Assembly: GCA_034664395.1 (NCBI GenBank)
Contig: JAXDHQ010000015.1
Coordinates: 705-64,704, forward strand
Length of the DNA: 64,000 bases
Origin: Solirubrobacteraceae bacterium
GTDB taxonomy: Bacteria; Actinomycetota; Thermoleophilia; Solirubrobacterales; Solirubrobacteraceae
Reading direction: 5' to 3'
A program made the translations under genes and the position numbers. Of the stretch, positions 2,337 to 48,801 are shown piece by piece. The notes under the pieces are model-generated. The model had not been told where the DNA came from. It ran no database searches and saw nothing but the letters and a program-made list of their open reading frames with translations. Every line of letters starts with the position of its first letter. Position 1 is the first letter of the stretch.

Positions 2337-2912
2337 ATGCTGTGCGGGATGGAGTCCGTGGAAACCAAGGCCTGGTTGCGCTGCTACCGCTGCTGGTCGA
2401 CCGACCTGGAGGTCCAGGTCCACTACGAGGGCATCCACAAGATCGACCCCGAGAGCGGCGAGCGCGGCGAGGTCGTCGACGAGCTCCAGGAGGCCGTCGT
2501 GCAGTGCCTGGACTGCATGCACGACCAGCCCCACCTGGGCTTCCGCGACGGCCGCGTGGAGCCGATCGAGGACCGCTGGGAGCGCATGATCGCCGGCACC
2601 CCGTGGGTCGCCTCCTGCACGGTGACCGTCGACGCCGACGAGGTCGAGACGTGCTCGGGCCCCGAGGCGGGCGATGCGCTCAGCTACGCGGCGTTCGGCG
2701 ACCACGGCACCCGCGAGTTCTTCACCCACGTGCGCTTCCACAAGCACGACGACGACGCGACGATCACCGTCCACCTGCTGGTCGAGCTCTACGCCCGCTC
2801 GATGGAAGAGGCGTCCGACGTGCTCGAGGAGGCCGCGCGCGGGCGCCTGGCCCTGACCTCGCTCGCCGAGGAGTCGCGGCCCCCCGCCGCCACCGGCGAG
2901 GACCCGCACTAG
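2337..2912 (+). CDS. Hypothetical protein with N-terminal CxxC...CxxC (zinc-ribbon-like) motif
   Basis: Only the part of ORF 1962..2912 downstream of mobA is plausible. I chose ATG 2337 (alternatives GTG 2304, ATG 2349). The composition is acidic and not Arg/Ala-biased (..ETKAWLRCYRCWSTDLEVQVHYEGIHKIDPESGE..VVQCLDCMHDQ..). I recognise no family. Confidence 0.55.
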   Translation: MLCGMESVETKAWLRCYRCWSTDLEVQVHYEGIHKIDPESGERGEVVDELQEAVVQCLDCMHDQPHLGFRDGRVEPIEDRWERMIAGTPWVASCTVTVDADEVETCSGPEAGDALSYAAFGDHGTREFFTHVRFHKHDDDATITVHLLVELYARSMEEASDVLEEAARGRLALTSLAEESRPPAATGEDPH

Positions 2913-5900
2913 CCCGCCAGCGTCCGGAGCTGGCGGACCATCAGGGTCAGCCCGGCCAGGTCGGCGCCGCCCTCCACCGCCAGCGTCCGCGCCAAACTCT
3001 CCAGCCGCCGGATCGCCTCGCCGTGCGCCTCGACGAACCGGTCAACGGCCTCCTCCACGGGCACGTCCGGCGCGTCCTGGAGCGCGCGCTGGGCCAGGTC
3101 GCGGCGCGCGCGCCACAGGTCGTCGCGCAGCGCCTGCAGCGCCCACCGCTGGGTGCGCGTGCTCACCGGCAGCTCGCTGAGGTGCTGCTCGACCCAGGCG
3201 AGCGCGACGCGCTCCTCCAGCAGCGAGAAGGCGCGGCCGACGTCCTCGACCGAGCGCCCGACCGCCTGGGCGGCGGCGATGACGTCGGGCGCGTGGGCGA
3301 GCGCCGCCAGGTAGGCGTGCGATCGCGCGATCGCCTCGGGCACGCCGCGCTCGACCAGCGCCGCCGCGTCGCGCTCGCGCCGCTCGCGCGCCGCGTCGGT
3401 GCCGAGCTCGGGCAGGACGGTGGCCAGCCGCCCGGCGCCCTCGCGCGCGGTCGCGATCGCGGTGCCGAGGTCGGCGCCGGGCGCGTTGGCCAGGTACCAG
3501 CGCGCGGTCGCCTCGACGAGGTCGTCGACGCCGGCCATGAGCGTCCACTGCGCCTCGCGGTCGACGCGGCCCTGCAGCCCCTCGATCGCCGCCCAGCGCT
3601 CGTGCGCGCCGATGGCGTCGCGGGCCACGCGGTACGCGCGCACCACGTCGGCCGGCTCGACGCCGTGCTCGGCCACCAGCCGCGACACGAACGTCGGGCC
3701 CAGCGCGTCGACGACGTGGTTGGCCACGATCGTCGCCACCAGCTCGCGGCGCAGCGGGTGCTCGGCCAGCAGGTCGCCGAAGCGCTCGACCACCGGCGGC
3801 GGGAAGTAGTCGCGCAGGTCGCGGTCGAGGTAGGGGTCGTCGGGCACCGACGATCGCAGCAGCGCGCCGATGAGGCTGCGCTTGGCGTAGGCGAGCAGCA
3901 CGGCCAGCTCCGGACGCTCGAGCCCGCGCCCGGCGCGCCGGCGCTCGGCCATCTCCTCGGTCGAGGGCAGGAACTCGTTCTCGCGCCGCAGCAGCCCCTC
4001 GGCCTCGAGCGCGCTCATGAGGTCCTCGTAGGCGAACATGCGCGCGGCCGACCCCGGCACCTCCTGGGCGAGGATCTGGGCCTGCAGGAACGAGTCGTAG
4101 AGCACGTGCGCGGCGACGTCGTCGGTCACGTCGGCCAGCAGCGTGTCGCGCTCGTCGCCGGTGAGCTCGCCGCGGCGCACCGCGAGGTCGAGCAGGACCT
4201 TGAGGTTCACCTCGTGGTCGGAGCAGTCGACGCCGGCCGAGTTGTCGATGAAGTCGGCGTTGATCAGGCCGCCTTCGCGGGCGAGCTCGATCCGCGCGCG
4301 CTGGGTGAAGCCGAGGTTGCCGCCCTCGGCGACCACGCGGCAATGAAGGTCGGACGCGTCGACGCGGATGGCGTCGCTCGAGCGGTCCAGCGCGTCGGCG
4401 TCGGTCTCGGTCGACGCCTTGACGACGGTGCCGATGCCGCCGTTCCAGAGCACGTCGACCGGCGCGCGCAGGATCGCGCGGATGACGTCGGTCGGCGCCA
4501 GGACCTCGTCCTCGATCCCCAGCGCCGCGCGCGCCTGCTCGGAGAGCTCGATGCGCTTGGCGCTGCGCGGCCAGACGCCGCCGCCGGCCGAGATCGCGTC
4601 GCGGTCGTAGTCGTCCCACGACGAGGCGGGGAGCTCGAACAGCCGCCGGCGCTCGGCGAAGCTCCGCGCCGCGTCGGGATCGGGGTCGATGAAGATGTGG
4701 CGGTGGTCGTAGGCGGCGACCAGGCGGATGCGGTCGCTGAGCAGCATCCCGTTGCCGAACACGTCGCCGGACATGTCGCCGATGCCCACCGCGGTGAACT
4801 CGTCCACGGCCGGGTCGAGGTCGAGCTCGCGGAAGTGGCGCTTGAGCGACTCCCACGCGCCGCGCGCGGTGATGCCCAGCGCCTTGTGGTCGTAGCCCTT
4901 CGAGCCGCCCGAGGCGAACGCGTCGCCGAGCCAGAAGCCGTACCGCGCGGCGATCCGGTTGGCGGCGTCGGAGAACGTTGCCGTCCCCTTGTCGGCCGCG
5001 ACGACGAGGTAGGTGTCGTCGTCGTCGAGCACGCGCACGCCCTCGGGGTGGACGACCTCGCCGTCGACGAGGTTGTCGGTGACGTCGAGCAGCCCGCTGA
5101 TGTAGGTGACGTACCCGCGCTCGACCTCGGCCTTCAGCCTCGCCGGGTCCTCGGGCCGGCGGCGCAGGTAGAAGCCGCCCTTGGCGCCCTCGGGGACGAT
5201 GACCGCGTTCTTCGTCATCTGCGCGCGCATGAGGCCGAAGACCTCGGTGCGGTAGTCCATGCGATCCGACCAGCGGATGCCGCCGCGCGCGATCCGCCCG
5301 CCGCGCAGGTGGATCCCCTCGACCTCGGGCGCGTAGACGTAGATCTCGAACAGCGGCGGCGGCTGCGGGATCGCCGGTACCTCGGCCGAGCGCAGCTTGA
5401 AGGCGATCGAGCGGCGGCCGCGGCGGTAGAGGTTCGTGCGGACGGTCGCGTCGATCATCCCGAGCTGGTTGCGCAGGATGCGGTCGTGGTCGAGCGACGG
5501 CACGGCCTCGAGGTCGACGAGGATGTCCTCGCGCAGCGCCGCCTCGGCCTCCTCGTCGTGCGCCACCGACGGGTCGAAGCGCAGCTCGAACAGCCGGATG
5601 AGCTTGGCCGTGATGTGCGGGTTGGCCGCGATTACGTCGTTCTGGTAGCCCTCGGTGAAGCGCGAGCCGATGCGCTGACGGTAGGAGCGGTAGGCGCGCA
5701 GGATCGCCACGCGCCGCCAGTCCAGGCCGCCGCTGACGACCAGGCGGTTCAGCGAGTCCGACTCGGCCTCGCCGCGCCAGACGGCGGCGATGCACTCCGC
5801 CACGCGCTCGCCGCACTCGTCGAGGTCGAGCGGCAGGTCGGTCGGCCCCAGCACGCCGAAGTCCTGCAGCCACGTCTCGCCGTCGCCGCCGAGCAGGCGC

Positions 5901-7690
5901 GTCGGGCGCTCCTCGACCACCCGCAGCCCCAGGTGCTCGAGCAGCGGCATCGCCTGCGACAGCTCGACCTTGCCGCCGATCCGGTAGAGCCCGATGCGCG
6001 TCAGCCCGCCGGGCTCGTTGCGCAGGCCGACGCGGAACGGCTCGCCCGAGGTGAACAGCCGCTCGAAGCACTCGACGTCGGCCGCGGCCGCCGCCGGCTC
6101 GACCGCCGCCTTGTAGGACTCGGGCAGTCGCCGGCACCAGCGCTTGGCCAGGACCCGGCCGCGCTCCTCCCCGTGCCGCGCGACGAGCGCCTCGCGGGCC
6201 CGGTCGTCCCAGGTTCGGGCCAGGTCGAGGACCTCGGCCTCCAGGGCGCGGAAGGCGACGTCGGGCAGGCCCCCCTCGGGCCGGTGCACGGTGAAGTGCA
6301 CGCGGACGTGGTCCTCCTCCCCCAGCACCTCGTGGGCCGCGACCGAGCGCGCGTCGAAGCGGGCGGCCAGCAGTGCGCGCAGGCGCTCGAGCAGCGCGGC
6401 GTCGTAGCGCGCCTTGGGCAGGGCGAGGATGATCGACGCCGAGCGCCCGTCGGCGTCGCGGCGGCCCAGCAGCCGGCCCTGCTCGGCCGGCAGCCCCAGC
6501 AGCGCCACGACCGCGCGGCGCAGGTCCTCGACCGGCGCCACGAACAGCTCGTCCTTGGGGAACGAGTCGAAGAGCGAGACCGCCGCCTTGTAGTCGTGCG
6601 AGCCCTCGATCAGGTCCTCCGCCGCCACGATCTGCCGCAGCTTGCGATGCAGGACCGGCGTCGCCGACGCCGGCTCGGCGTAGGCCTTGGTCGTGAACAG
6701 GCCGATCATCCGCGACTCGCCGACGACGCGGCCGTCCGCGTCCACGCGGCGGATGCCGACGTAGTCCATCCGCGCGCGACGGTGCACGGGCGACAGGCGG
6801 TTCGTCCGCGAGATCAGCAGCAGGTCGCCGACCTGCACGCGCTTGCGCAGTCCGGCCTCGAGCTCGGCCAGCGCGACCGGCTTGGCGTAGGCCGAGCGGC
6901 CCTCCTCCGAGAGCAGCCCCAGCCCCGAGCCCGCCACGACCCCCAGCGCGTCGTCGCGCAGGTCGTACTGGCGGGCGCCGAGGAGGATGAAGTTGTCGGC
7001 GCGCAGCCAGTCCAGGAAGGCGACGACCTCCTCGATCTCGTCCTCGTCGTAGCGCTCGGCCGCGGCGCGGGCGACGTCGGCCATGGCGTCGATGCGCGCG
7101 CGCATGGCGTCGAAGTCGCGCACGACGCGGCGCACGTCGGCGAGCACCGCGCGCACCGCGTCCTCGAGGTCGGCGAGCTCCTCGGGCGACAGCCTCCGGT
7201 CGAGCTCGAAGTGCATGACCGACTCGGTCGCGGTCGCGCCGCCGGGGTGCAGCACCCGGGCGATGCCGCCGTCGGGGCCGCGCTCGGTGCCGACGATCGG
7301 GTGCAGCACGCGGACGATGCCCAGGCCGCGGGCCTGCAGCTCGGCGGTGACGGAGTCGACGAGGAACGGCAGGTCCGCGGTGTTGGTCTCCAGCACCGAG
7401 CCGGCGGTGCGATAGCCGTGCTCGGCCGCGGTCGGGTTGATCGCCCGCACCGCCATCGGCGCCCCGTCGCGCGACGCGGCGAGCTCGAAGGCGCCCAGCA
7501 GCTCGTGGAAGAGCGCCTCGGCGTCGGGCGCGGCGTCGCCGTCGTCGGCGGTCCCGGCTGAGCGCCGGCGCAGGTAGGCGCGGGCAAACTCCAGCACGGC
7601 CTCGGCCCGCTCCGGCGGCAGCCGCTCTGAGACGAGCTGCTCGACGTCCGTCACGCAGCCATCATGGCGCTCCCGGGGGGCGGTTGTCAT
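2909..7690 (-). CDS. gdh: NAD-specific glutamate dehydrogenase, large (~180 kDa, Bac_GDH) class
   Basis: ORF 2909..7990. ATG 7690 gives 1593 aa (alternative GTG 36 nt downstream). Catalytic-core motifs ..RGGIRWSDR.., ..PEGAKGGFY.., ..GIGDMSGDVFGNGML.. are embedded in long N- and C-terminal extensions, as in the large bacterial NAD-GDH family. Confidence 0.92.
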   Translation of the reverse strand: MTTAPRERHDGCVTDVEQLVSERLPPERAEAVLEFARAYLRRRSAGTADDGDAAPDAEALFHELLGAFELAASRDGAPMAVRAINPTAAEHGYRTAGSVLETNTADLPFLVDSVTAELQARGLGIVRVLHPIVGTERGPDGGIARVLHPGGATATESVMHFELDRRLSPEELADLEDAVRAVLADVRRVVRDFDAMRARIDAMADVARAAAERYDEDEIEEVVAFLDWLRADNFILLGARQYDLRDDALGVVAGSGLGLLSEEGRSAYAKPVALAELEAGLRKRVQVGDLLLISRTNRLSPVHRRARMDYVGIRRVDADGRVVGESRMIGLFTTKAYAEPASATPVLHRKLRQIVAAEDLIEGSHDYKAAVSLFDSFPKDELFVAPVEDLRRAVVALLGLPAEQGRLLGRRDADGRSASIILALPKARYDAALLERLRALLAARFDARSVAAHEVLGEEDHVRVHFTVHRPEGGLPDVAFRALEAEVLDLARTWDDRAREALVARHGEERGRVLAKRWCRRLPESYKAAVEPAAAAADVECFERLFTSGEPFRVGLRNEPGGLTRIGLYRIGGKVELSQAMPLLEHLGLRVVEERPTRLLGGDGETWLQDFGVLGPTDLPLDLDECGERVAECIAAVWRGEAESDSLNRLVVSGGLDWRRVAILRAYRSYRQRIGSRFTEGYQNDVIAANPHITAKLIRLFELRFDPSVAHDEEAEAALREDILVDLEAVPSLDHDRILRNQLGMIDATVRTNLYRRGRRSIAFKLRSAEVPAIPQPPPLFEIYVYAPEVEGIHLRGGRIARGGIRWSDRMDYRTEVFGLMRAQMTKNAVIVPEGAKGGFYLRRRPEDPARLKAEVERGYVTYISGLLDVTDNLVDGEVVHPEGVRVLDDDDTYLVVAADKGTATFSDAANRIAARYGFWLGDAFASGGSKGYDHKALGITARGAWESLKRHFRELDLDPAVDEFTAVGIGDMSGDVFGNGMLLSDRIRLVAAYDHRHIFIDPDPDAARSFAERRRLFELPASSWDDYDRDAISAGGGVWPRSAKRIELSEQARAALGIEDEVLAPTDVIRAILRAPVDVLWNGGIGTVVKASTETDADALDRSSDAIRVDASDLHCRVVAEGGNLGFTQRARIELAREGGLINADFIDNSAGVDCSDHEVNLKVLLDLAVRRGELTGDERDTLLADVTDDVAAHVLYDSFLQAQILAQEVPGSAARMFAYEDLMSALEAEGLLRRENEFLPSTEEMAERRRAGRGLERPELAVLLAYAKRSLIGALLRSSVPDDPYLDRDLRDYFPPPVVERFGDLLAEHPLRRELVATIVANHVVDALGPTFVSRLVAEHGVEPADVVRAYRVARDAIGAHERWAAIEGLQGRVDREAQWTLMAGVDDLVEATARWYLANAPGADLGTAIATAREGAGRLATVLPELGTDAARERRERDAAALVERGVPEAIARSHAYLAALAHAPDVIAAAQAVGRSVEDVGRAFSLLEERVALAWVEQHLSELPVSTRTQRWALQALRDDLWRARRDLAQRALQDAPDVPVEEAVDRFVEAHGEAIRRLESLARTLAVEGGADLAGLTLMVRQLRTLAG

Positions 7691-7691
7691 C

Positions 7692-8212
7692 CGAGTTGGG
7701 GTTTGTCGGGCCGTCTGCAACGTGGCGTGCCGGCGGCGGGCGTGGCGGCGCCGTGCGCGGGCGGCCCCGGGGCGGCCTGCCGCGAGCGCTCGGCGGAACC
7801 GCGCGGCCAGGGCAATGAGGGGTGAGCGCCTGCGCACTCTCCCGACGTTCGTGGCGTGCGCCTTCGCGGGTGGCGCCCGCGTCGCGGTGATGGGTCGAGA
7901 AAGCGACGGAGGATGTCGCAAGATCTCCCCAGCGGCCCGGGACCGCCCGCATCGGGCGTCACGCGTCGCAGTCCTGCCGCGATGTCGCAACAGACCGCGC
8001 GAGCGCCGATGCAGTTCCAGGCACCCCGTGGGGGGTGTGCGCTCTTTTGCCCCCTAGAACGAGGGTTAGAGCGCACACCCCCCACCCCCAGGCGCCAAGA
8101 GCGACGGCGGAGCCGCGAAACGTCACGAAACGCCGCGAGATCGCTTCCCCTCGGTGCCCTGTCCGCCACGAACGCGCGCGGCGAGAGCGCCCACGGTGCG
8201 AGTTGGAGGACG
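7692..8212 (+). repeat. Dispersed intergenic multi-block repeat, copy A (boundaries approximate)
   Basis: Colinear sequence blocks are shared with 40960-41370 and 47751-48122. The 62-nt core 8121-8182 differs at one position from 47957-48018. No credible ORF. Confidence 0.8.
8030..8083. repeat. 16-bp perfect inverted repeat (hairpin) inside repeat copy A
   Basis: GGGGGGTGTGCGCTCT (8030-8045) pairs with AGAGCGCACACCCCCC (8068-8083) around a 22-nt loop. The loop contains a small CCCT/AGGG stem. The T-run CTCTTTTG directly follows the 5' arm. Confidence 0.85.
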
Positions 8213-8232
8213 GCGACGTATCATGCAACCCC

Positions 8233-8499
8233 ATGGTTGCGCGTGACATCGTCCTCCCGGTCGACCCCGAGGAGGCCTGGGAGGCGCTGACCGACCCCGA
8301 GCTGCTCGAGCAGTGGCTCGGCGGCGAGCGCGAGGCGGTCCTCGAGGAGGCCGAGCCGGGCGAGCGCCTCGTGTTCTGGTGGTGGGAGGAGGGCGAGCCC
8401 GGGTCGCGCGTCGAGCTGCGACTCGTCCCGGTGGACGGCGGCACCCGGGTCTCGGTCACCGAGGCGCCGGTCGGGCCGTTCGCGCTCGCGACGGCATGA
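8233..8499 (+). CDS. Small SRPBCC/AHSA1-like domain protein
   Basis: ATG 8233 within ORF 8035..8499 (88 aa): MVARDIVLPVDPEEAWEALTDPELLEQWLG... ATGA overlap with the downstream ArsR gene, a common gene pairing. Confidence 0.7.
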   Translation: MVARDIVLPVDPEEAWEALTDPELLEQWLGGEREAVLEEAEPGERLVFWWWEEGEPGSRVELRLVPVDGGTRVSVTEAPVGPFALATA

Positions 8500-8822
8500 C
8501 GCCCGGCACCGATGTCTTCGCCGCGCTGGCCGACCCCACGCGCCGCACGGTCATGCACGAGGTCTCCACCCGCGGCAGCGCCACCGCCACCGAGCTCGCC
8601 ACGCCGCTGGGCGTCACGCGCCAGGCGGTGGCCAAGCACCTCGGCGTGCTCGCCGACGCCGGGCTCGTCGACGCCCGCCGCGAGGGCCGCGAGACCCGCT
8701 ACCGCCCCACCCCGGCGCCGCTGGGCGAGGCGATCTCCTGGATGGCCCAGGTCGGCGGCGCCTGGGACGACCGACTGGCCGCGCTGGAGCGCCAGGTGGC
8801 TCGCAGGCGCGCTCGCGGGTAG
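8496..8822 (+). CDS. ArsR/SmtB-family winged-helix transcriptional regulator
   Basis: ATG 8496 within ORF 8313..8822: ..DVFAALADPTRRTVMHEV..ATELATPLGVTRQAVAKHLGVLADAGLV.. Confidence 0.85.
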   Translation: MTPGTDVFAALADPTRRTVMHEVSTRGSATATELATPLGVTRQAVAKHLGVLADAGLVDARREGRETRYRPTPAPLGEAISWMAQVGGAWDDRLAALERQVARRRARG

Positions 8823-8832
8823 ACCTCCACCC

Positions 8833-9216
8833 ATGAGCCTCTCTCCCAGCCCGAACGCCAGCGCCATCCACATCGAGGATCTGTCGGCCTGGCGCGGACA
8901 GGACGTCATCGACGAGCGCAGCGACAAGCTGGGCAAGCTCGAGGACGTGTACTACGACGGCGAGAGCGACGACCCCGCCTTCGCCGCGGTCAAGTCCGGG
9001 ACGCTGAGCAAGCGCGTGACCCTCGTCCCGCTCGCTGCCGCATCGGTGGGGCGCGACTACGTGCGCGTCCGCGCCGACAAGAACGCGTTCAAGGACGCGC
9101 CGAGCTTCGACCCCGACGCGCAGCTCTCGATCGACGACGAGGCGGCGGTCTACCGCCACTTCGCCATGGACTACGCGCCGACGGCCCAGGGGGGCCGCCG
9201 GCTGGCCAAGCGCTAG
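8833..9216 (+). CDS. PRC-barrel domain protein
   Basis: ATG 8833 within ORF 8512..9216 (127 aa): ..[39 protein letters not shown].., a typical PRC-barrel N-terminal pattern. Confidence 0.65.
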
Positions 9217-11036
9217 CCCTCGTCCTGCAGGCGGCGCTCGAGCGCCGCGAGCTGGGCCTGGACCTCGTCCGGCAGGCGGTCGCCGAACATCGCCAGGTGC
9301 TCCTTGACCTGCGGGAGCTGGGCGCGCAGGTCCTGGGCGTCGACGGTGAGCAGCGCGTCGAGCGCGTCGTCGGAGATGTCGAGGCCGTCGGTGTAGAGGT
9401 CCGCGGGGGTGGGGACGAGGCCGATCGGCGTCTCGCGCGCCTCGCCCTCGCCCTCGCAGCGGCGGAAGACCCACTCCAGCACGCGCGAGTTCTCGCCGAA
9501 CCCGGGCCACAGGAAGTTGCCGTCGTCGTCCTTGCGGAACCAGTTGACGACGAAGATCTTCGGCAGCGCGCCCGGCTTGGCGCGGCGGCCGATCTCCAGC
9601 CAGTAGCCCATGTAGTCGGCCATGTTGTAGCCGCAGAAGGGCAGCATCGCGAACGGGTCGAAGCGCAGCTTGCCGACCTGCCCGGCGGCGGCCGCGGTCG
9701 TCTCCGAGCTCATCGTGGCTCCGAGGAAGACGCCGTGCTCCCAGTCGAACGCCTCGTGCACGAGCGGGATGACGGTCGAGCGCCGTCCGCCGAAGAGCAT
9801 GGCGTCGATCGGCACGCCGGCCGGGTCCTCCCACTCCGGCGCGATCGCCGGGTCCTGCGCGGCGGGCGTGGTGAAGCGGGCGTTGGGATGGGCGGCGGGC
9901 GAGTCGGACTCCGCCGTCCAGTCCTCGCCGTGCCAGTCGATGGCGTGCGCCGGCGGCTGCTTGGTCATCCCCTCCCACCACACGTCGCCGTCGTCGGTGA
10001 GGGCGCAGTTGGTGAAGACGGAGTTGGACTCGATCGTGCGCATCGCGTTGGGGTTGGTGGCCTCCCCCGTCCCCGGCGCGACGCCGAAGAAGCCGGCCTC
10101 GGGGTTGATCGCGTACAGGCGCCCGTCCTCGCCGAACTTCATCCACGCGATGTCGTCGCCGATCGTCTCGACCGTCCAGTCGTCGAGCGTCGGGATGAGC
10201 ATGGCGAGGTTGGTCTTGCCGCAGGCGCTGGGGAAGGCGCCGGTGAGGTACTTCACGCGGCCGTCGGGCGAGGTGAGCTTGAGGATGAGCATGTGCTCGG
10301 CCATCCAGCCCTCGTCGCGGGCCATGACCGAGGCGATCCGCAGGGCGAAGCACTTCTTGCCCAGCAGGGCGTTGCCGCCGTAGCCCGAGCCGTAGGACCA
10401 GATCTCGCGGGTCTCGGGGAAGTGGACGATGTACTTGTTGTCGGCGTTGCACGGCCACGGGACGTCCTGGACCCCGTCGGTGAGCGGCATGCCGACCGAG
10501 TGCAGGCAGGGCACGAACTCGCCGTCGGCGCCGAGGACGTCGAGCGCGCGCGTGCCCATCCGGGTCATGATCCGCATCGAGACCGCGACGTAGGCCGAGT
10601 CGGTGCACTGCACCCCGATGTGGCTCTTGTCCGACCCGAGCGGGCCCATCGAGAACGGCACCACGTACATCGTGCGCCCGCGCATGCAGCCGCGGAACAG
10701 GCCGTCGAGGTGCTCGCGCATCTCGCCCGGCTCGCGCCAGTTGTTCGTCGGGCCGGCGTCCTCCTCGCGCTCGGAGCAGATGAAGGTCCGGTCCTCGACC
10801 CGGGCGACGTCGCCGGGGTCGGAGAGCGCGAGGTAGGAGTTGGGCCGCTTGGCCTCCGACAGCCGCTGGAACGTGCCCGCGTCGACGAGCTGCTGGGCGA
10901 GCTGGTCGTACTCGTCCGCCGTCCCGTCGCACCAGTGCACCGCCGCCGGCTCGGTGAGCGCCGCTACGTCCTCGACCCAGGCGAGCAGCTTCGCGTGCTT
11001 GGTCGGGACGGTCGCTTGGCTCACGGGATGCGTCAA
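9213..11036 (-). CDS. pckG: Phosphoenolpyruvate carboxykinase (GTP)
   Basis: 607-aa ORF with TTG 11036 (alternative GTG 11024). Motifs ..[17 protein letters not shown].. and ..[13 protein letters not shown].. of GTP-dependent PEPCK. Confidence 0.95.
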
Positions 11037-11087
11037 CTCCTCTGGGGTTCTTCAGGAAAGGGCGGCATTCTGTCGTACGGAATCCTG

Positions 11088-11120
11088 CGGCGCGGCGCGC
11101 CGCGTGCGGCCCGGGGCCGC
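11088..11120 (-). terminator. GC-rich palindromes immediately downstream of the MaoC-like gene (possible U-tail-less terminator)
   Basis: CGCGGCGCGCCGCG (11091-11104) is a perfect palindrome. GCGGCCC-G-GGGCCGC (11106-20) abuts the stop codon at 11121. No T-run follows. Confidence 0.3.
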
Positions 11121-11681
11121 CTACTCGACGTTACCCTCAGCCGCGTCGGTCGACGACGTCCCGCCCGCCTGGCGCCGGGGCACCAGCACGAGGCGCTTGA
11201 ACTCGGCCACCAGCACGCCGTCCTGGTTGTGGACGCGGGTGTGCACCCTGACCGTCCCGCGGTCGGGCTTGGACTGCGACTCGCGCTTCTCGAGCACCTC
11301 GGACTCGACGAACAGCGTGTCGCCGTGGAAGACTGGGGCCGGGTGCTTGAGCTCGTCGGTGGCGAGGTTGGCGATGGCCTTGCCCGAGACGTCGGAGACG
11401 CTCATGCCCAGGGCGAGCGAGTAGACCAGCGGGCCGACGACGACGTTGCGACCCTGCTGCGACCGCGACGCGTACACGTCGTTGATGTGCAGCGGGTGGT
11501 GGTTCATCGTGATGAGGCAGAAGAGGTGGTCGTCGGCCTCGGTCACCGTCTTGGCCGGCCAGTGCTTGTAGACCGCGCCGACGTCGAACTCCTCGAGGTA
11601 GCGGCCGTAGGCGTGGGCCCCGGAGGCCTCGCGTGCCGCCTGGTCGGTCTCGATCGCGGCCGTACCGGTCGTGTCGGACAT
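11121..11681 (-). CDS. MaoC-like (R)-specific enoyl-CoA hydratase/dehydratase, single hot-dog domain
   Basis: ATG 11681 is preceded by AAGGGAG (186 aa). ..FCLITMNHHPLHINDVYA..GPLVYSLALG.. is a typical MaoC dehydratase pattern. Confidence 0.8.
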   Translation of the reverse strand: MSDTTGTAAIETDQAAREASGAHAYGRYLEEFDVGAVYKHWPAKTVTEADDHLFCLITMNHHPLHINDVYASRSQQGRNVVVGPLVYSLALGMSVSDVSGKAIANLATDELKHPAPVFHGDTLFVESEVLEKRESQSKPDRGTVRVHTRVHNQDGVLVAEFKRLVLVPRRQAGGTSSTDAAEGNVE

Positions 11682-11758
11682 GCTTCGCTCCCTTGGTCCT
11701 GTCTGGGGGCGGGAGTCAATCACGCCCGCGGCGGCGAGGCCGTCCGCCGCGCCCGCCG

Positions 11759-11776
11759 GTTGACTCGGCAGTCAAC
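11759..11776. promoter_or_regulatory. Palindromic site GTTGAC-TCGGCA-GTCAAC in the MaoC/Mcl divergent gap
   Basis: Perfect 6+6 (7+7 with the flanking T/A) inverted repeat, ending 12 nt before ATG 11789. It has the same TTGAC-N6-GTCAA architecture as 14113-14130. TAAGGT (11777-11782) could be a -10 box for a leaderless transcript. Confidence 0.5.
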
Positions 11777-11788
11777 TAAGGTCCGGCG

Positions 11789-12853
11789 ATGCGCAACCCC
11801 CGCGACTTCCTCAAGCCGCTGGCCATCGGGGCGCCGGCGCCGCTGACCGAGATCCAGGTCACGCCCGCCCGGATGATCCACTTCCTGGACTTCTCCAACG
11901 AGAAGATGGTGGCCAAGGCCGCCGACATCGCCACGAAGACCGACATCCTGCTCGGCAACCTCGAGGACGCCGTGCCGGTCGACCGCAAGGAGGCCGCGCG
12001 CGAGGGGCTCATCCGCGTCGGGCGCGAGATGGACCTCGGCTCGACGGCGCTGTGGACGCGGGTCAACGCGCTCGAGTCGCCGTGGGTGCTCGACGACCTC
12101 ACCCGGATCGTGAGCGAGATCGGCGACCGACTCGACGTGATCATGGTGCCCAAGGTCGAGGGCCCGTGGGACATCCACTACGTCGACCGCCTGCTGGCCC
12201 AGCTCGAGGCCCGCGCCGGCCTGGAGCGCCCGATCCTCGTGCACGCGATCCTCGAGACCGCGCAGGGCGTGACCAACCTCGAGGAGATCGCCGCCGCCAG
12301 CCCGCGCATGCAGGGCATGAGCTTCGGCCCGGCCGACCTCGCCGCGTCGCGGCGGATGAAGACGACCCGCGTCGGCGGCGGCCACCCCGGCTATCGCGTG
12401 ATCGAGGACCCCGACCCCACCGACCCCGAGGCGCCGCGCGCCAGCGCCCAGCAGGACCCGTGGCACTACTCGCTCGCCCGCATGGTCGACGCCTGCGCGG
12501 CCGTCGGGATCCTGCCCTTCTACGGCCCCTACGGCGACATCAAGGACGTCCTCGGCTGCGAGACGCAGTTCCGCGCCGCCTTCCTGCTCGGCTGCGTCGG
12601 CGCCTGGTCGCTGCACCCGGTCCAGATCGAGATCGCCAAGAAGGTCTTCTCCCCCGATCCCGACGAGGTGATCTTCGCCAAGAAGGTCATCGAGGCCATC
12701 CCGGACGGGCGCGGAGTCCACATGATCGACGGCAAGATGCAGGACGACGCCACCTGGAAGCAGTGCCGCGTGATGGTCGACCTGGCGGAGATGCTCGCGG
12801 CGAAGGACCTGGAGCTGGCGGAGGCCTACGGGTTCACCGGCGCGGCGGCGTAG
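11789..12853 (+). CDS. Malyl-CoA/beta-methylmalyl-CoA/citramalyl-CoA lyase-type enzyme (Mcl-like, HpcH/CitE superfamily)
   Basis: 354 aa: ..[75 protein letters not shown].. Length and motifs fit the long Mcl-type lyases rather than the short CitE. Confidence 0.75.
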
Positions 12854-24155: not shown

Positions 24156-24902
24156 ATGGAGCTCGGCCTGATCCGCCATGCCACGCTGCGCGTCGACGTC
24201 GCGGGGCTCGCGCTGCTCGTCGACCCGATGCTGGCTCCCGCCGGGGCGTACGACCCGGTGGCGGGCACGGCGAACCCGCGCCGCAACCCGCTGGTCGACC
24301 TGCCGGTGCCGGCGCGCGACGTCGTCGACCGCCTCGACGGCGTGCTCGTCACCCACCTGCACAACGACCACCTCGATCCGGTGGCGGTCGAGCTGCTCGA
24401 CCCCGGCCTGCCCGTCGCGTGCCAGCCCGGCGACGAGGCGGCGCTGCACGGTCGCGGCTTCAGGGACGTGCGTCCGGTCGACGGGGCGATCGACCTGGCG
24501 GGCGTCGGCGTGGCGCGCACCGGCGGGCGCCACGGCACCGGCGAGATCGGCGAGCGCATGGGCCCGGTCTCGGGCTTCGTCGTCCGCGCGCCCGGCGAGC
24601 CCGTCCTCTACGTCGCCGGCGACACGATCTGGTGCGACGAGGTCGAGCAGGCGCTGGCCGAGCACGACCCCGACGTCGTCGTGGTCAACTCCGGCGCCGC
24701 GCGCTTCCTGGAGGGCGACCCGATCACCATGGACGCCGACGACGTCATCGCCACCGCGCGCGCGGCCCGCGGCGTCGTGGTGGCCGTCCACATGGAGGCG
24801 ATGAACCACTGCGCGCTGACGCGCGCCGCGCTGCGCGACGCGGTCGCCGCGGCGGGGGTGGAGGTCCTGATCCCGGCGGATGGGGAGAGGTTGGAGCTGT
24901 GA
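24156..24902 (+). CDS. MBL-fold metallo-hydrolase
   Basis: 248 aa with the ..VLVTHLHNDHLD.. (HxHxDH) motif. Confidence 0.8.
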   Translation: MELGLIRHATLRVDVAGLALLVDPMLAPAGAYDPVAGTANPRRNPLVDLPVPARDVVDRLDGVLVTHLHNDHLDPVAVELLDPGLPVACQPGDEAALHGRGFRDVRPVDGAIDLAGVGVARTGGRHGTGEIGERMGPVSGFVVRAPGEPVLYVAGDTIWCDEVEQALAEHDPDVVVVNSGAARFLEGDPITMDADDVIATARAARGVVVAVHMEAMNHCALTRAALRDAVAAAGVEVLIPADGERLEL

Positions 24903-25005
24903 AGCGAGCCTGCGCAGAGTCGCGACGCTCGAGGTGTCCTCCGTCGCACGTGGCGCCCGCTCGCCGGGGGTGGGCTCGTTTGACCCCCGCAGAGCGAGAC
25001 GCCCC
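24903..25005 (-). repeat. Fragment of the dispersed intergenic repeat, inverted orientation (copy E)
   Basis: The reverse complement reads GGGGGCGTCTCG..CGAGCCCACCCCCGGCGAGCGGGCGCCACGTGCGACGGAGGACACCTCGAGCGTCGCGACTCTGCGCAGGCT. This is colinear with 41232-41300 (copy B) and 47925-47975 (copy C). Confidence 0.65.
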
Positions 25006-40941: not shown

Positions 40942-40959
40942 CGCCGCCTAGTGTGACTG

Positions 40960-41370
40960 ATCGGCGCGGGCCCGACGCGGCGCGCAACGCGGCGCCCGAT
41001 CGCGCACGTCGGCGGCCCTGCGCGGCGAGGGCATCGAGGGGAAGCGGAGTCTGTGGCGCTGCGGGGCGCGGGCGGTCGTCCTCCGGGGGCGCGGGGGGTG
41101 TGGTCTGCAACGGCGAGCACCATGACCGTCACGACTCCGCGCAGGCTCTGCGTGCCCTTCGCGCCGTGGGCACGCGGCGGGCGCGGGCGCTGGAGGGGTG
41201 GGCTCTTTTTCTTTCGCTATGCGAAACAAGGAGAGCCCACCCCCCGGCGAGCCCGGCCATTCGCGACGGAAGACGCCCAGAGCGTCACGACACTCCGCGA
41301 CTCTGCTTCCCCTCGGTGCCCTGCGCCACGAAGACGAACACTGGGGCGAAGCCGTGAGGCGGATCGGGTG
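40960..41370 (+). repeat. Dispersed intergenic multi-block repeat, copy B (boundaries approximate)
   Basis: It fills the 464-bp deoC/acyl-CoA dehydrogenase gap. It shares GCGCGGCGAGG(G)CA(T/C)CGAGGG(G)AAGCG, the CGTCACGACTC.GCGCAG.CTCTGC box, a hairpin, GCGACGGAAGAC and a diverged core (41283-41335) with copies A and C. Confidence 0.75.
41195..41243. repeat. 12-bp perfect inverted repeat with nested inner stem (hairpin) inside repeat copy B
   Basis: GGGGTGGGCTCT (41195-41206) pairs with AGAGCCCACCCC (41232-41243). Inner stem TTTCGC-tat-GCGAAA (41212-41226). The T-run CTCTTTTTCTTTC follows the 5' arm. Confidence 0.85.
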
Positions 41371-41405
41371 ACCCGGCCCCACCCGACCACCGACGCATCG
41401 CCGAG

Positions 41406-42617
41406 CTAGATCTTGTTGCGCTGCAGCAGCTTCTTGCCGATGACCATGCGCTGGATCTCGGAGGTCCCCTCCCCGATCAGCAGCAGCGGCGCATCGCGGT
41501 ACAGGCGCTCGATCTCGTACTCCTTGGAGTAGCCGTAGCCGCCGTGGATGCGCAGACACTCCTCGACGCAGAAGCGCCCCGCCTCCGACGCGAAGAGCTT
41601 GGCCATGCCGGCCTCGAGGTCCGAGCGCTCGCCGGCGTCCTTCAGCCGCGCCGCGCGCAGCGTCAGCAGGCGGGCGGCCTCGACCTGGGTCGCCATGTCG
41701 GCGAGCTTGAACTGGATCGCCTGGTGCTCGGCGATCGGCTTGCCGAACGCCTTGCGCTCCTGCGAGTAGCGCAGCGCCAGCTCGAGCGCGCGCTGGGCGA
41801 TGCCGACGCCACGGGCGGCGACGTTGACGCGGCCGACCTCGAGCGCGTCCATCATCTGCCCGAAGCCCTTGTTGAGCCCGGCGTCCTCGCCACCGAGGAC
41901 GTTCTCGGCCGGGCAGCGGTAGCCGTCGAAGACGAGCTCGGTCGACTCGACGCCCTTGTAGCCGAGCTTCTTGATCTTGGGGGGAACGACCAAGCCGGCG
42001 TACTCGCCGGTGTTCTCGCTCACGCCCGGCTCCTTCTCCGCGATGAAGCACGTCATCCCGCGGTGGCGGGGGTCGGCCTCCGGATCGGTCTTGACGAGGA
42101 CGAAGACGAGGCTCGAGAGCAGGCCGTTGGTCACCCACATCTTCTGGCCGTTGATCTCCCAGGCGCCGTCGTCGAGCTTCTTGCCCGAGGTCTTGATCGC
42201 CTGGACGTCGGAGCCGAGCTCGGGCTCGGACAGGCTGAACGCCGCCCGGATCTCGCCCGTCGCCATCCGCGGCAGGTACTTCTGCTTCTGCTCCTCGGTC
42301 CCGTACTTCATGAGCAGGTAGGACCCGATGAAGTGCGTGTTGACGATGCCCGAGATCGAGATCCACCCGCGCGAGAGCTCCTCGACGATCATCGCGTAGG
42401 TGGTGAGGTCGAGCCCCATCCCCCCGTGCTCCTCGGGGATCGTGACGCCGAAGAGGCCGAGCTCCTTCATCTGCTCGACGATCGGCCCGGGGAACTCGTC
42501 GACCGCGTCGTAGTGCTCGGCGTTGGGCAGGATCTGCTCGTCCGCGAACTGCCGGACCATCTCGCAGATCGCCTTCTGCTCATCGGTCTTCTCGGTGAAG
42601 GGAGTCTCCACGGCCAT
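41406..42617 (-). CDS. Acyl-CoA dehydrogenase
   Basis: ATG 42617 is preceded by AGGAGACG, within ORF 41406..43070, 403 aa: ..GLFGVTIPEEHGGMG.., ..FSLSEPELGSD.., ..IHGGYGYSKEYEIERLYRDA.. Confidence 0.9.
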   Translation of the reverse strand: MAVETPFTEKTDEQKAICEMVRQFADEQILPNAEHYDAVDEFPGPIVEQMKELGLFGVTIPEEHGGMGLDLTTYAMIVEELSRGWISISGIVNTHFIGSYLLMKYGTEEQKQKYLPRMATGEIRAAFSLSEPELGSDVQAIKTSGKKLDDGAWEINGQKMWVTNGLLSSLVFVLVKTDPEADPRHRGMTCFIAEKEPGVSENTGEYAGLVVPPKIKKLGYKGVESTELVFDGYRCPAENVLGGEDAGLNKGFGQMMDALEVGRVNVAARGVGIAQRALELALRYSQERKAFGKPIAEHQAIQFKLADMATQVEAARLLTLRAARLKDAGERSDLEAGMAKLFASEAGRFCVEECLRIHGGYGYSKEYEIERLYRDAPLLLIGEGTSEIQRMVIGKKLLQRNKI

Positions 42618-46656: not shown

Positions 46657-46693
46657 GGAGCCAGTGTAAGCGGCCCCCGGTGCAGCGAGACGG

Positions 46694-46903
46694 CTAATCC
46701 AGCGTGCGCAGATCGTACGACCCGCACACCGAGCAGGTCCCGCTGACGGTGTGGCCGACCCACGCCGTGACGTGGGCGCCGCACTCCGTGCACGCGCAGC
46801 GCACGTCGCGCAACTCGGGCGCCGCGGCCGGCGCGGGGGGTGCGGCGGACGGCGGCGCGGACACGCCGAGGGGTGTGAACGAGGCCTTCACTGGACCGTT
46901 CAT
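46694..46903 (-). CDS. Small zinc-ribbon protein (69 aa), hypothetical
   Basis: ATG 46903 within ORF 46694..47854: MNGPVKASFTPLG..(Pro/Ala linker)..LRDVRCACTECGAHVTAWVGHTVSGTCSVCGSYDL. It has CxxC x17 CxxC and is the first gene of the aminotransferase operon. Confidence 0.5.
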   Translation of the reverse strand: MNGPVKASFTPLGVSAPPSAAPPAPAAAPELRDVRCACTECGAHVTAWVGHTVSGTCSVCGSYDLRTLD

Positions 46904-47026
46904 CGGCACGTCTGCCTCGAACGCACACGAACTGCAGGAAAACTGGACATATGCGCGGCAAAAGGCGCGGCGGCGCTCTTTTGCACCCGGCCCCGCGGCT
47001 CGCACCGCAGCGGTACGGTGTCGTCC

Positions 47027-47752
47027 ATGGCGCACGACGCGGCCGTGGCCGCCGTCTTCGAGCCTGTGGCGCCCCCGACGACCTTCGAGGAGACCGTCGA
47101 GCGCCTCGGGAGCGCGATCCGGCTGGGGATCCTCGGGCCCGGGACGCGGCTGCCGTCCGAGCGCGAGCTCGCCGACCAGCTCGGTATCTCGCGCTCGACG
47201 CTGCGCCAGGCGATCACCACGCTCGTGCAGTCCGGCCACATCACGTCGGTGCGGGGACGCGGCGGCGGCACCTTCGTCGTCCAGGAGCCGCCGCTGGCCG
47301 AGGGCAGCCCCGCCGGCGCGGTCCGCCCGGACTGGCGCCTGGTGCTGGACCTGCGCGTGGCCATCGAGATCGGCGCCGCCACGCTCGCCGCCGAACGCGC
47401 CGGCGACGACGACCTCGCGCTCATGCGCGGGTGCGTGGAGCGGATGAACGCGGCCACCGAGTTCGACGACTACCGGCGCGCCGACGTGGGCTTCCACATG
47501 GCCATCGCCCAGGCCAGCGGCGTGCCGCGCCTGGTCGCGCTCATGACCGAGGTGCATTCCGACGTGGCGGAGCTCATCGCCCACATCGCCCACCCGCCCG
47601 AGGTCCTCGCCCACTCCAACCTCGAGCACGCCAAGATCGTCGACGCGTGGGCCCGCGGCGAGGGCGCCCGCGGCATCACGCTCCTGCGCCGCCACCTCGA
47701 GGGCACCGAGCACATCCTCGGCGGCCTGTTCCCGGCGGGGGCGCCGGCCTGA
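47027..47752 (+). CDS. GntR-family (FadR/FCD subfamily) transcriptional regulator
   Basis: ATG 47027 within ORF 46751..47752, 241 aa: ..LPSERELADQLGISRSTLRQAITTLVQSGHITSVRGRGGGTFV.. plus a helical FCD-like C-terminal domain. Confidence 0.88.
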   Translation: MAHDAAVAAVFEPVAPPTTFEETVERLGSAIRLGILGPGTRLPSERELADQLGISRSTLRQAITTLVQSGHITSVRGRGGGTFVVQEPPLAEGSPAGAVRPDWRLVLDLRVAIEIGAATLAAERAGDDDLALMRGCVERMNAATEFDDYRRADVGFHMAIAQASGVPRLVALMTEVHSDVAELIAHIAHPPEVLAHSNLEHAKIVDAWARGEGARGITLLRRHLEGTEHILGGLFPAGAPA

Positions 47753-48122
47753 GGTTGGTGGTGGCGCGGGCGGTGGCGGCGCCGCGCGCGCTCCGCGTCG
47801 CGTGGGCGGCGCCGCGCGGCGAGGCACCGAGGGAAAGCGACGCGATCCCCGCATCCGTCACGACTCTGCGCAGCCTCTGCCTTCCCTTCGCGCCCCGGGC
47901 GGGCGGCGTCGCCCGCGCGGCCCCGGGGCGCCACCTGCGACGGCGGAGGCCCGAAGCGTCACGAAACGCCGCGAGATCGCTTCCCCTCGGTGCCCTGTCG
48001 GCCACGAACGCGCGCGGCAGACGAACGGCGCCGCGACCTGGAGGGCGGCGGCCTGGGCGAGAACTGCGAAAGCGGGCCTGGGCGAGAGCCGCGAGGCGGC
48101 GCTGCGCGGTGAGCGACGAAGG
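47751..48122 (+). repeat. Dispersed intergenic multi-block repeat, copy C (boundaries approximate)
   Basis: It fills the 377-bp gap between two convergent GntR genes. It lacks the hairpin block. It contains both CGTCACGA boxes (47856-47900 and 47957-48000) and the 62-nt core 47957-48018. Confidence 0.8.
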
Positions 48123-48129
48123 ACGTCCG

Positions 48130-48801
48130 CTAGGTAGAGCCGCGCCGCCGCGGCACGCGCACGAGCGGCGCCCACGCCAGCGGGTGCTCGCCGGCGCCCT
48201 CCTGGGCCAGGAGCAGCCGCGCCGTGTTCAGCAGGTGCGCGCGCATCCGCTCGGCCGCCGCGGGGGCGTCGCGCGCGCGCAGTGCCGCCATCACCTCCAC
48301 GTGCTCGGCGTGGATGGCGCGCAGGTCGCGGCTGCGCCCCACCGTCGACGCGCCGCGGAAGCGCACGAGGTCGCGGAGCTGGCCGACGAGCGCGGCGAGG
48401 CGGCGGTTGCCGGCCGCCATGAGCAGGATCTCGTGGAAGCGCGTGTCGTGGGCCATGAACGCCGCCTCGTCGCCGGCGTCGGCCAGGCCCTCCATCGCCT
48501 CGAGCTCGCGGGCCAGGTCGGCGAGGTCGTCATCGGTCAGCAGCCCGCACGCCCGCTCGGTGGCGGGGACCTCGAGCAGCAGCCGCAGGGTGAAGACCTC
48601 CTCGAGGTCGTGCGCCGAGGTCTGCAGCACCCGCACGCCGCGGTTGCGCTCGAAGCGCACCACGCCCTGGCGCTCGAGCAGGAGCAGCGCCTCGCGCACC
48701 GGGGTGCGCGAGACGCCGAACTGCTCGGCCAGCCTGGCCACCGAGTAGCGCTCGCCCGCGGCCAGGCGGCCGTCGACGATCGCCGCGCGGATGGCGTCCA
48801 A
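48130..48801 (-). CDS. GntR-family (FadR/FCD subfamily) transcriptional regulator; start codon uncertain
   Basis: C-terminal part of ORF 48130..49647: ..YSVARLAEQFGVSRTPVREALLLLERQGVV.. plus an FCD-like domain. The first canonical in-frame start after the upstream gene's stop is TTG 48801. An in-frame CTG at 48882 overlaps that stop (CTGA). Confidence 0.8.
   Translation of the reverse strand: MDAIRAAIVDGRLAAGERYSVARLAEQFGVSRTPVREALLLLERQGVVRFERNRGVRVLQTSAHDLEEVFTLRLLLEVPATERACGLLTDDDLADLARELEAMEGLADAGDEAAFMAHDTRFHEILLMAAGNRRLAALVGQLRDLVRFRGASTVGRSRDLRAIHAEHVEVMAALRARDAPAAAERMRAHLLNTARLLLAQEGAGEHPLAWAPLVRVPRRRGST

Follow-up and report, generated by a model that had tools for sequence, protein, structure and literature searches.

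A dispersed palindromic non-coding repeat, probably of the mosaic foldback kind, in an uncultured Solirubrobacterales lineage

Introduction

The divergent gdh and SRPBCC genes of a Solirubrobacteraceae bacterium (GCA_034664395.1, contig JAXDHQ010000015.1) are separated by a gap of 542 nt, and this locus raises the question of what occupies it. The gap lies in a stretch of 64,000 nucleotides (positions 705 to 64,704 of the contig, forward strand), referred to throughout as the window. An earlier reading made from the letters alone (the sequence-only reading) proposed that the gap is filled by one copy of a dispersed, non-coding, multi-block repeat, and offered a selfish element resembling a MITE (a miniature transposable element with inverted repeats) or a REP sequence, a family of small RNAs, or arrays of protein-binding sites as candidate explanations. 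The analysis presented here indicates that the repeat belongs to a family of elements of 150–450 bp, each of which is a long imperfect palindrome. On balance this family, carried by an uncultured Solirubrobacterales lineage, is probably a non-autonomous non-coding repeat with a mosaic, foldback structure, similar in kind to MITE, ERIC and BIME elements.

Results

Each of the window's three longest non-coding stretches holds one repeat copy

The size given for the gap in the sequence-only reading is borne out by the codon coordinates, with the gdh start codon (CAT, − strand) ending at 7690 and the SRPBCC ATG at 8233. The G+C content of the window is 73.4%, and its real genes show G+C at third codon positions (GC3) of at least 0.93 with GC2 of approximately 0.5. 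Codon-position composition was assessed over 30-codon windows with GC3 of at least 0.87 taken as coding-type, and stretches of at least 150 nt without it were listed. Four such stretches were present in 64 kb, at 7685–8220, 40949–41408, 47750–48132 and 46684–46960. Of these the first three exceed every other non-coding stretch of the window in length, and each holds one copy of the repeat on the + strand, designated copies A, B and C respectively. Every open reading frame (ORF) within these three gaps showed flat composition (GC1 = GC2 = GC3, approximately 0.72–0.8) and therefore the statement that no credible ORF fits the gap is correct. The fourth stretch is an A+T-richer divergent spacer between an aminotransferase gene and a GntR-family gene, without a repeat copy. 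A hidden small protein was also considered, as translation of the − strand of the right-hand core of the repeat gives QGTEGK(R/Q)SRGVS* in all three copies (A, C and B), and the differences between them seem synonymous to the eye; this candidate was ruled out by divergence of the upstream peptides (ARVRGG versus VFVFVA) and a GC3 of only approximately 60%.

The earlier remark that the repeat is not recognisable as any described RNA family was upheld in that no match to Rfam 15 was found at gathering thresholds across the whole window (cmscan), and Rfam models (6S, HEARO, raiA and others) run at E ≤ 5 against 10 copy-bearing loci gave chance matches only. No tRNA or tmRNA was present in the window.

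The copies are homologous and each is a long imperfect palindrome

BLAST comparison showed that copy A (8085–8215) and copy C (47921–48050) are 84% identical over 131 nt and that A (8081–8172) and B (41236–41332) are 73% identical, with three blocks common to B and C at 80–85%. These matches of 73–85% support the block-by-block colinearity described for the three long gaps, and the blocks listed for them were all present, namely GAG(T)TTGG, the block at 7736–7760 and 47766–47790, GAGAAAGCGACG, CGCATC..GTCACG, GCGACGGCGGAG and the core. Although identity between A and B is no more than 61% across the 98-nt core, the copies A (8143), B (41305) and C (47979) all contain an exact 19-mer, GCTTCCCCTCGGTGCCCTG, within the core. 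When up to 3 mismatches were allowed this 19-mer had five matches in the window versus 0.08 expected, the two extra matches lying on the opposite strand and representing inverted left arms of B (41027–41045) and C (47820–47838). The window thus contains three full copies and, as also noted previously, one fragment (24901–24990, − strand).

These similarities might be ascribed to chance resemblance of G+C-rich spacers or to a recent local duplication limited to the region, since 73% G+C makes short matches common and many weak BLAST matches fall in coding DNA. This explanation, to which practically no probability attaches, is already refuted by the excess of 19-mer matches, the 84% identity of A and C over 131 nt, the unrelated flanking genes and the homologous copies in other genomes and metagenomes described below. 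The last two observations also confirm the earlier argument against a local duplication.

Every copy is a long imperfect palindrome in which the right arm GCTTCCCCTCGGTGCCCTG pairs with an inverted left arm CAGGGCAnnGAGGGG located 160–335 nt upstream. The left arm CAGGGCAYCGAGGGGAAG and the complementary right arm form the base of a long rod, and complementarity extends approximately 25–60 nt outside and inside the arms. The arm helix is clearly real, with pairing in 91% of cells compared with 38–55% when the partner was slid, and a profile of the right half also matched the left half on the opposite strand. Minimum free energy (MFE) folds of all 12 copies paired the 5′ and 3′ ends into a long rod, with z-scores relative to dinucleotide shuffles of −4.4 for A, −7.6 for B and −1.3 for C. 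Toward the tip of the rod there are three optional modules. One repeats the right-hand module in degenerate form, another is the block GCGACGGCGGAG, and the last is a near-perfect hairpin of approximately 50 nt with a G6/C6 clamp and an A+T-rich tip, present in A and B and not in C. This foldback architecture, the second degenerate right-hand module in each element and the apical hairpin of A and B had all been missed by the sequence-only reading.

Related copies occur in other genomes and metagenomes

Two scans for the exact 19-mer, of 185,579 species genomes and of Joint Genome Institute (JGI) metagenomes, returned 20 and 15 loci respectively, most of which were chance matches in unrelated taxa. 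True copies outside the window, each with surrounding family sequence, numbered 11 (3 from the species-genome scan and approximately 8 from the metagenome scan), with an inverted left arm in 9 of the 11. They were located in metagenome-assembled genomes (MAGs) of a Paraconexibacteraceae (L003) and of uncultured Actinomycetes (L010, L017) and on soil metagenome contigs (L025, L028, L030, L032, L033, L034, L037 and L038), confirming the existence of a dispersed, non-coding, multi-block family. Their length ranged from about 180 nt (L003, L028, L010) to approximately 390 nt, the L025 copy ending at a contig end and the L030 copy being interrupted by an insertion sequence (IS). As these copies were found via the exact 19-mer, its invariance outside the window is by construction, and the scans therefore undercount copies. 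Both scans left out the source genome: L022 carries the 19-mer, yet its sample is missing from the metagenome matches. DNA identical or 98.9% identical to the window was present in JGI sample 3300044840 and in MAG GCA_034664585.1, and homologues of the window DeoC are named Solirubrobacteraceae. No BLAST match was found for copy B in plasmids or for copy A in phages and the 19-mer was absent from viral contigs, and a plasmid, phage or viral origin was rejected on these grounds.

Tandem arrays lie on both sides of the repeat in two of the soil copies, with units of 41 and 44 nt in L038 (1584–1732 and 2119–2262) and of 24 and 73–75 nt in L032 (1235–1303 and 1731–1955), where the array reaches the contig end. 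These minisatellite-like arrays of 2.8–3.7 copies are roughly mutually inverted and lie outside the rod; A and C have small versions.

Copies differ in presence and in content between close relatives

The spacer between deoC and the acyl-CoA dehydrogenase gene (AcdH) measures 465 nt with copy B in the window and 69–72 nt in L045 (DeoC 92% identical) and L044 (86%), both of which keep the gene order AcdH-deoC-aldehyde dehydrogenase. Copy B is therefore most simply an insertion of approximately 390 nt beside a small pre-existing hairpin. A search for inverted repeats and for empty sites had been put forward as a check on the family, and both are now in hand in the form of the paired arms and of the empty copy B site of these two relatives. 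The absence of copy B from relatives suggests that copies are gained at intergenic sites, loss in those relatives being the alternative. L010 is syntenic with window positions 7360–12524 (approximately 80%) and has its copy between ArsR and phosphoenolpyruvate carboxykinase (PEPCK) genes, where the window has a PRC-barrel gene, with none upstream of SRPBCC. That the elements might be att sites of islands was rejected, as gene order around B is unchanged in the relatives without copy B.

Turnover was also evident within copies. Comparison of copy B with the 98.9% identical strain L021 revealed indels of 9, 24 and 23 nt and approximately 12 substitutions, with the right core almost untouched. 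Copy A of sister strain L048 matches the window at approximately 99% over its right 400 nt, whereas identity over the left 110 nt or so (7678–7795) is only approximately 60%, the flanks being identical around the swapped left part (L048 approximately 100–330). The gdh gene starts within the swapped stretch, with ATG in the window and with GTG in L048. The left part of A in the window resembles copy C, suggesting exchange between copies, and it appears that copies exchange segments with one another. GAGTTGG occurs at both edges of copy A and is not duplicated in L048. Modules are present or absent from copy to copy. Contigs L047, L049 and L050 start within copy A and the L021 contig ends 49 nt into copy C; assemblers break this way at repeats.

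At the L044 site matching copy C (2878–3037), downstream of the orthologous GntR-family gene, a different palindrome of approximately 150 nt was observed (GTGGTCCCGTACGCAATTACGGTC ... GACCGTAATTGCGGGAGGGACCAC), whose interior holds a further hairpin, CCCTTTTGC..GCAAAGGGG. This palindrome may represent a second family of foldback repeats within the group.

The long arms show no compensatory excess and the apical hairpin covaries

Elements of this architecture could represent a structured, rod-shaped, multi-copy non-coding RNA family of 150–450 nt in which the C-rich 19-mer CUUCCCCUCGGUGCCCUG is functional, either as a seed pairing with G-rich Shine-Dalgarno-like sequences or as a protein-binding site, with the left arm masking it. 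The exact 19-mer in A, B and C despite the 61% identity of A and B would be expected of such a family, although outside the window its invariance is an artefact of how copies were found. Similarly the fold z-scores of B and A are in keeping with an RNA whereas that of C is not. All three full copies of the window lie on one strand, yet strand preference was inconsistent, RNA folding being better on the + strand in 8 copies and on the − strand in 3 including A and C, while of the arm mismatches 95 would be G-U on the + strand versus 86 on the − strand. When partners were slid by 1–2 columns, substitutions at predicted arm pairs of homologous copies preserved pairing at least as often, so that the long arms gave no sign of excess compensatory change; one-sided changes between L037 and L038, for instance, kept the pair in 8 cases and broke it in 21, with slid controls giving 11–16 and 18–30. 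The right arm is fixed by ascertainment and therefore the arm helix cannot covary. On the left arm 14 of 22 changes were transitions (C-to-U or A-to-G) that still allow a + strand G-U pair, which hints only weakly at RNA because the sequences are few and related. Four consecutive compensatory pairs seen by eye between L003 and L028 were unreproduced by the automatic pairwise count and were not relied on.

A further point for an RNA is the strong covariation of the apical hairpin, where across 7 copies 13 of 20 pairs had changed on both sides with pairing kept, a figure reached by none of 500 shuffles. This hairpin is almost purely Watson-Crick, with 0–3 G-U pairs, and is equally stable on both strands. 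Its covariation together with the Watson-Crick pairing indicates that palindromy itself is maintained at short range. Across 53 loci and the window no instance of the hairpin pattern lay outside family copies, and an independent mobile hairpin nested in the element was therefore rejected.

A consensus scan of the copy A gap detected a single promoter-like site and a single terminator-like site, both away from the element edges. A possible extracytoplasmic function (ECF)-type promoter in the half-element (GGAAG-N15/16-CGTGA) was present in A, B and C and on L032–L038 left arms and missing from the other copies, and is therefore no family feature. With no conserved promoter or terminator, varying neighbours, no Rfam match even at E ≤ 5 and close relatives that lack copy B at the same site, a structured RNA family is an unlikely explanation.

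Neighbouring genes vary and no mobilising enzyme was detected

Copy A occupies the divergent gap between gdh and SRPBCC, copy B lies between deoC and AcdH, antisense within a likely AcdH-deoC operon, and copy C is flanked by a GntR-family gene and a convergent gene. Elsewhere the neighbours are infB (L028), ArsR and PEPCK (L010), a PHP-domain protein (L003) and another GntR-family gene (L017). Conserved synteny was rejected, since a neighbour in common was found only for L025 and L038 (90%), and although a GntR-family gene precedes both C and L017, the two proteins are only 28% identical. Orientation relative to neighbours varies, making a leader or riboswitch role unlikely. Convergent gaps hold C, L010, L017, L038/L025 and the fragment.

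Such placement raises the possibility of a host cis-element kept for its hairpin and spread by recombination, acting as a bidirectional factor-independent terminator or 3′ end stabiliser or as sites for a DNA-binding protein (TGC-N2-CGAGGGG in each arm). Although gene 3′ ends or convergent gaps hold C, the fragment, L010, L017, L028 and L038/L025, 3′ placement is not consistent, with A in a divergent gap and B inside the likely AcdH-deoC operon. The rods are very stable on either strand, but no U-tract follows them, and 400 nt with several modules far exceed what a terminator needs. The retention of GCAnYGAGGG on left arms, which were not chosen by exact match, and the presence of a different 150-nt palindrome in L044 at the site matching C would both suit a host function, whereas close relatives manage without the element at B. 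A host cis-element is accordingly rather improbable.

The L030 copy adjoins an IS30-family transposase gene (IS at 922–1632, transposase N-terminal 200 aa). Homology of this IS to its relatives begins approximately 14 nt inside the right arm, and related IS copies (L051–L053) lie at other, unrelated sites with no 19-mer-like sequence within 3 kb. The IS therefore inserted into the copy and is not its parent, and IS30 was rejected as the autonomous partner; no second transposase was seen near any copy. No RAYT gene and no GTAG/CGTC-headed REP unit was seen in the window and collected loci, the genome not having been scanned. The CGTCACG-containing module is not itself palindromic, and the family does not show the 20–40 nt palindromic unit of REP, REPIN and BIME elements.

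Organization of copies A, B and C and of a truncated fourth copy

All parts of copies A, B and C are on the + strand. Copy A begins with an outer left segment (7692–7782), within the window common only to copy C (47766–47816), that includes a 21-nt × 2.1 tandem repeat (7721–7763; Tandem Repeats Finder, TRF); BLAST aligned A 7736–7784 with C 47766–47816 at 77%. The 5′ strand of the outer stem, GAGCGCTCGGCGGAACCGCGCGGC (7783–7807), pairs with 8162–8190 in MFE folds and is homologous to the outer stem GCGCTCTCCG..CGGAGAGCG of L032/L033/L037/L038. It is followed by the left arm CAGGGCAATGAGGGGTGAGC (7808–7827), identified as the inverted partner of the 19-mer by sequence comparison and pairing; at this position sister strain L048 carries CAGGGCACCGAGGGG, which complements the corresponding part of the right arm perfectly. 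A second left-arm-like block, GTCGAGAAAGCGACGG (7894–7909), read from the sequence, corresponds to the G(A/G)GAAAGCGACG block noted previously and is colinear with the inner end of the copy C left arm (GGGAAAGCGACG, 47830–47841). The middle module CGCATCGGGCGTCACGCGTCGCAGTCCTGCC (7948–7978), likewise read from the sequence, is a degenerate direct copy of the right-hand module with clearer counterparts in B (41126–41179) and C (47855–47908), which are 85% identical to each other. The apical hairpin GGGGGGTGTGCGCTCT...AGAGCGCACACCCCCC (8030–8083) has 20 Watson-Crick pairs, one G-U pair and an A+T-rich tip. Block GCGACGGCGGAG (8101–8112) also occurs in C (47937–47948) and in L032/L037/L038, and in B as GCGACGGAAGA (41263–41273). 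The right-hand core (8121–8161) consists of CGTCACGAAACGCCGCGAGATC and then the 19-mer GCTTCCCCTCGGTGCCCTG (8143–8161), and the copy is completed by the 3′ strand of the outer stem and the right outer segment, TCCGCCACGAACGCGCGCGGCGAGAGCGC...GAGTTGGAGGACGGCG (8162–8215), defined by BLAST against C and by the folds.

Copy B (40964–41400), delimited by sequence comparison and with the lowest fold z-score (−7.6), comprises the left arm (41027–41045), middle module (41128–41166), apical hairpin (41195–41245), GCGACGGAAGA (41263–41273) and right core (41283–41323), and contains an inverted repeat with 24-nt arms that are 92% complementary. Copy C (47753–48135), also delimited by sequence comparison and without the apical hairpin, comprises the left arm (47820–47838), middle module (47855–47893), GCGACGGCGGAG (47937–47948) and right core (47957–47997). 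It further contains a 14-nt × 2.9 tandem repeat (47775–47818, TRF) and, at its right edge, two adjacent 25-nt repeats GGCCTGGGCGAGA(A/G)C(T/C)GCGA(A/G)(A/G)CG (48050–48099) that fall below the TRF threshold used. The truncated fourth copy (24901–24990, − strand) lies in a 103-nt convergent gap; what is left of it is the hairpin's 3′ half, GCGACGGAGGA and the first part of the right core. It is cut at GCTTC, exactly where the 19-mer would begin, by the stop codon of the gene ending at 24900–24902.

Other repeats were noted near copy A. The PEPCK gene, on the − strand, contains within its 3′ end a 45-nt tandem repeat at 9218–9310 (2.1 copies, 77% matches). An inverted repeat GCAACC-N4-GGTTGC overlies the SRPBCC start codon (8226–8243), upstream of an ArsR-family gene, and two inverted repeats of this type occur in L010 (approximately 4490–4560); the motif is probably an ArsR operator.

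Discussion

The repeat has terminal inverted repeats, small size, no coding capacity and same-site presence or absence in relatives, and in these respects resembles a MITE. Among the three candidates originally proposed a MITE/REP-like selfish element fits best, in view of the empty sites for copy B, the exchange of modules, the assembly breaks and the lack of a strand-specific RNA signal. The interpretation as a non-autonomous mosaic foldback repeat has to accommodate several observations that weigh against it. Copies A, B and C have identical right arms but differing left arms, an asymmetry that a simple model of two terminal inverted repeats does not predict, and the two-sided covariation of the apical hairpin would also fit a selected RNA or single-stranded DNA (ssDNA) structure. 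No copy was found in approximately 95 kb from relatives at 85–86% DeoC identity (L039–L044), and the family looks rare even if undercounted, with 3 true matches in 185,579 species genomes and approximately 8 in metagenomes. Comparison of the filled and empty copy B sites gave only an ambiguous, short CCCGA duplication candidate, the spacer being too diverged to place the ends. Finally, no parent transposase or autonomous partner was found near any copy in the window and collected loci.

A mosaic foldback repeat of this kind would be spread by a trans-acting enzyme recognising the conserved arms or the hairpin, with copies inserting at intergenic sites and then exchanging segments among themselves. 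The long arms would subsequently decay without compensation, as was seen at the power of the pairwise test, and the apical hairpin might be kept nearly perfect either by template-switch 'quasipalindrome correction' during replication or by selection for a single-stranded hairpin. Quasipalindrome correction by replication template switching is known from E. coli genetics. The element would thus provide for comparison two fates of a palindrome, a short apical hairpin that stays symmetric and long-range arms that decay. A further view, to which we give little credence, is that the family represents a new class of multi-copy rod-shaped RNA or ssDNA structure in which the C-rich 19-mer and apical hairpin are under selection and which is not merely selfish DNA. 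Were this so, the copies could be, for example, regulatory RNAs whose seed the left arm masks, or else a 'giant REPIN' mobilised by a hairpin-specific enzyme not yet recognised.

For annotation, the repeat explains the three longest spacers of the window, and the Arg/Pro-rich shadow ORFs there should not be called genes. The element also affects assembly, being a point at which this lineage's metagenome contigs break. A transcript running through a copy could form a very stable rod, a candidate terminator or block to 3′ exonucleases, and should copies be transcribed, neighbouring genes such as gdh, deoC or a GntR-family regulator could have their termination or mRNA stability altered by the rod. 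No described repeat family of this mosaic palindromic kind was found in the literature for Thermoleophilia/Solirubrobacterales, to which the present elements add one; the kind is ordinary for bacterial genomes and the particular family is one for which no earlier record was found.

The family can be compared with several known systems. 6S RNA is a rod-shaped regulatory RNA, and the shortest copies (L003, L028, L010) resemble it in having 150–200 nt and 5′ and 3′ ends that pair over a long distance, but the family matches neither 6S nor any other Rfam model, is multi-copy at non-conserved loci and has no strand preference. In eukaryotic foldback (FB) transposons the middle is variable and the long inverted arms consist in part of short tandem sub-repeats. 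Tandem sub-repeats in L038 and L032 and a variable middle are features of the present family also, which unlike FB transposons is bacterial, ten times smaller and associated with no coding unit. REPINs are REP doublets that form hairpins and are mobilised by RAYT tyrosine transposases. Like REPINs the elements form a hairpin of two inverted halves, and the palindromy of the apical hairpin outlasts sequence change, whereas they are four to five times longer, their long arms lack compensatory evolution and no RAYT was found (genome not scanned).

The NIMEs of Neisseria and the SNR repeats of Deinococcus are mosaic intergenic elements. So too are the BIMEs of E. coli (PMC3184786). As in these mosaics, a few blocks are combined, omitted or repeated in each copy, palindromic units alternate in orientation and only spacers are occupied, although the units of the present family are not REP palindromes of 20–40 nt. 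Long stem-loop bacterial MITEs include ERIC/IRU of enterobacteria, Correia of Neisseria and MaeMITE of Microcystis (150–435 bp) (PMC3184786). The present family differs from those in the lack of a clear target-site duplication and of a parent IS found here, in its phylum (Thermoleophilia, Solirubrobacterales), in inverted similarity that spans most of the element rather than only the ends and in a right arm more conserved than the left. Like them, its members are small, ORF-free and intergenic, with terminal inverted repeats that fold the whole element into a rod, variants carrying internal insertions, strain- or lineage-specific abundance and a frequent location at gene 3′ ends (PMC3184786).

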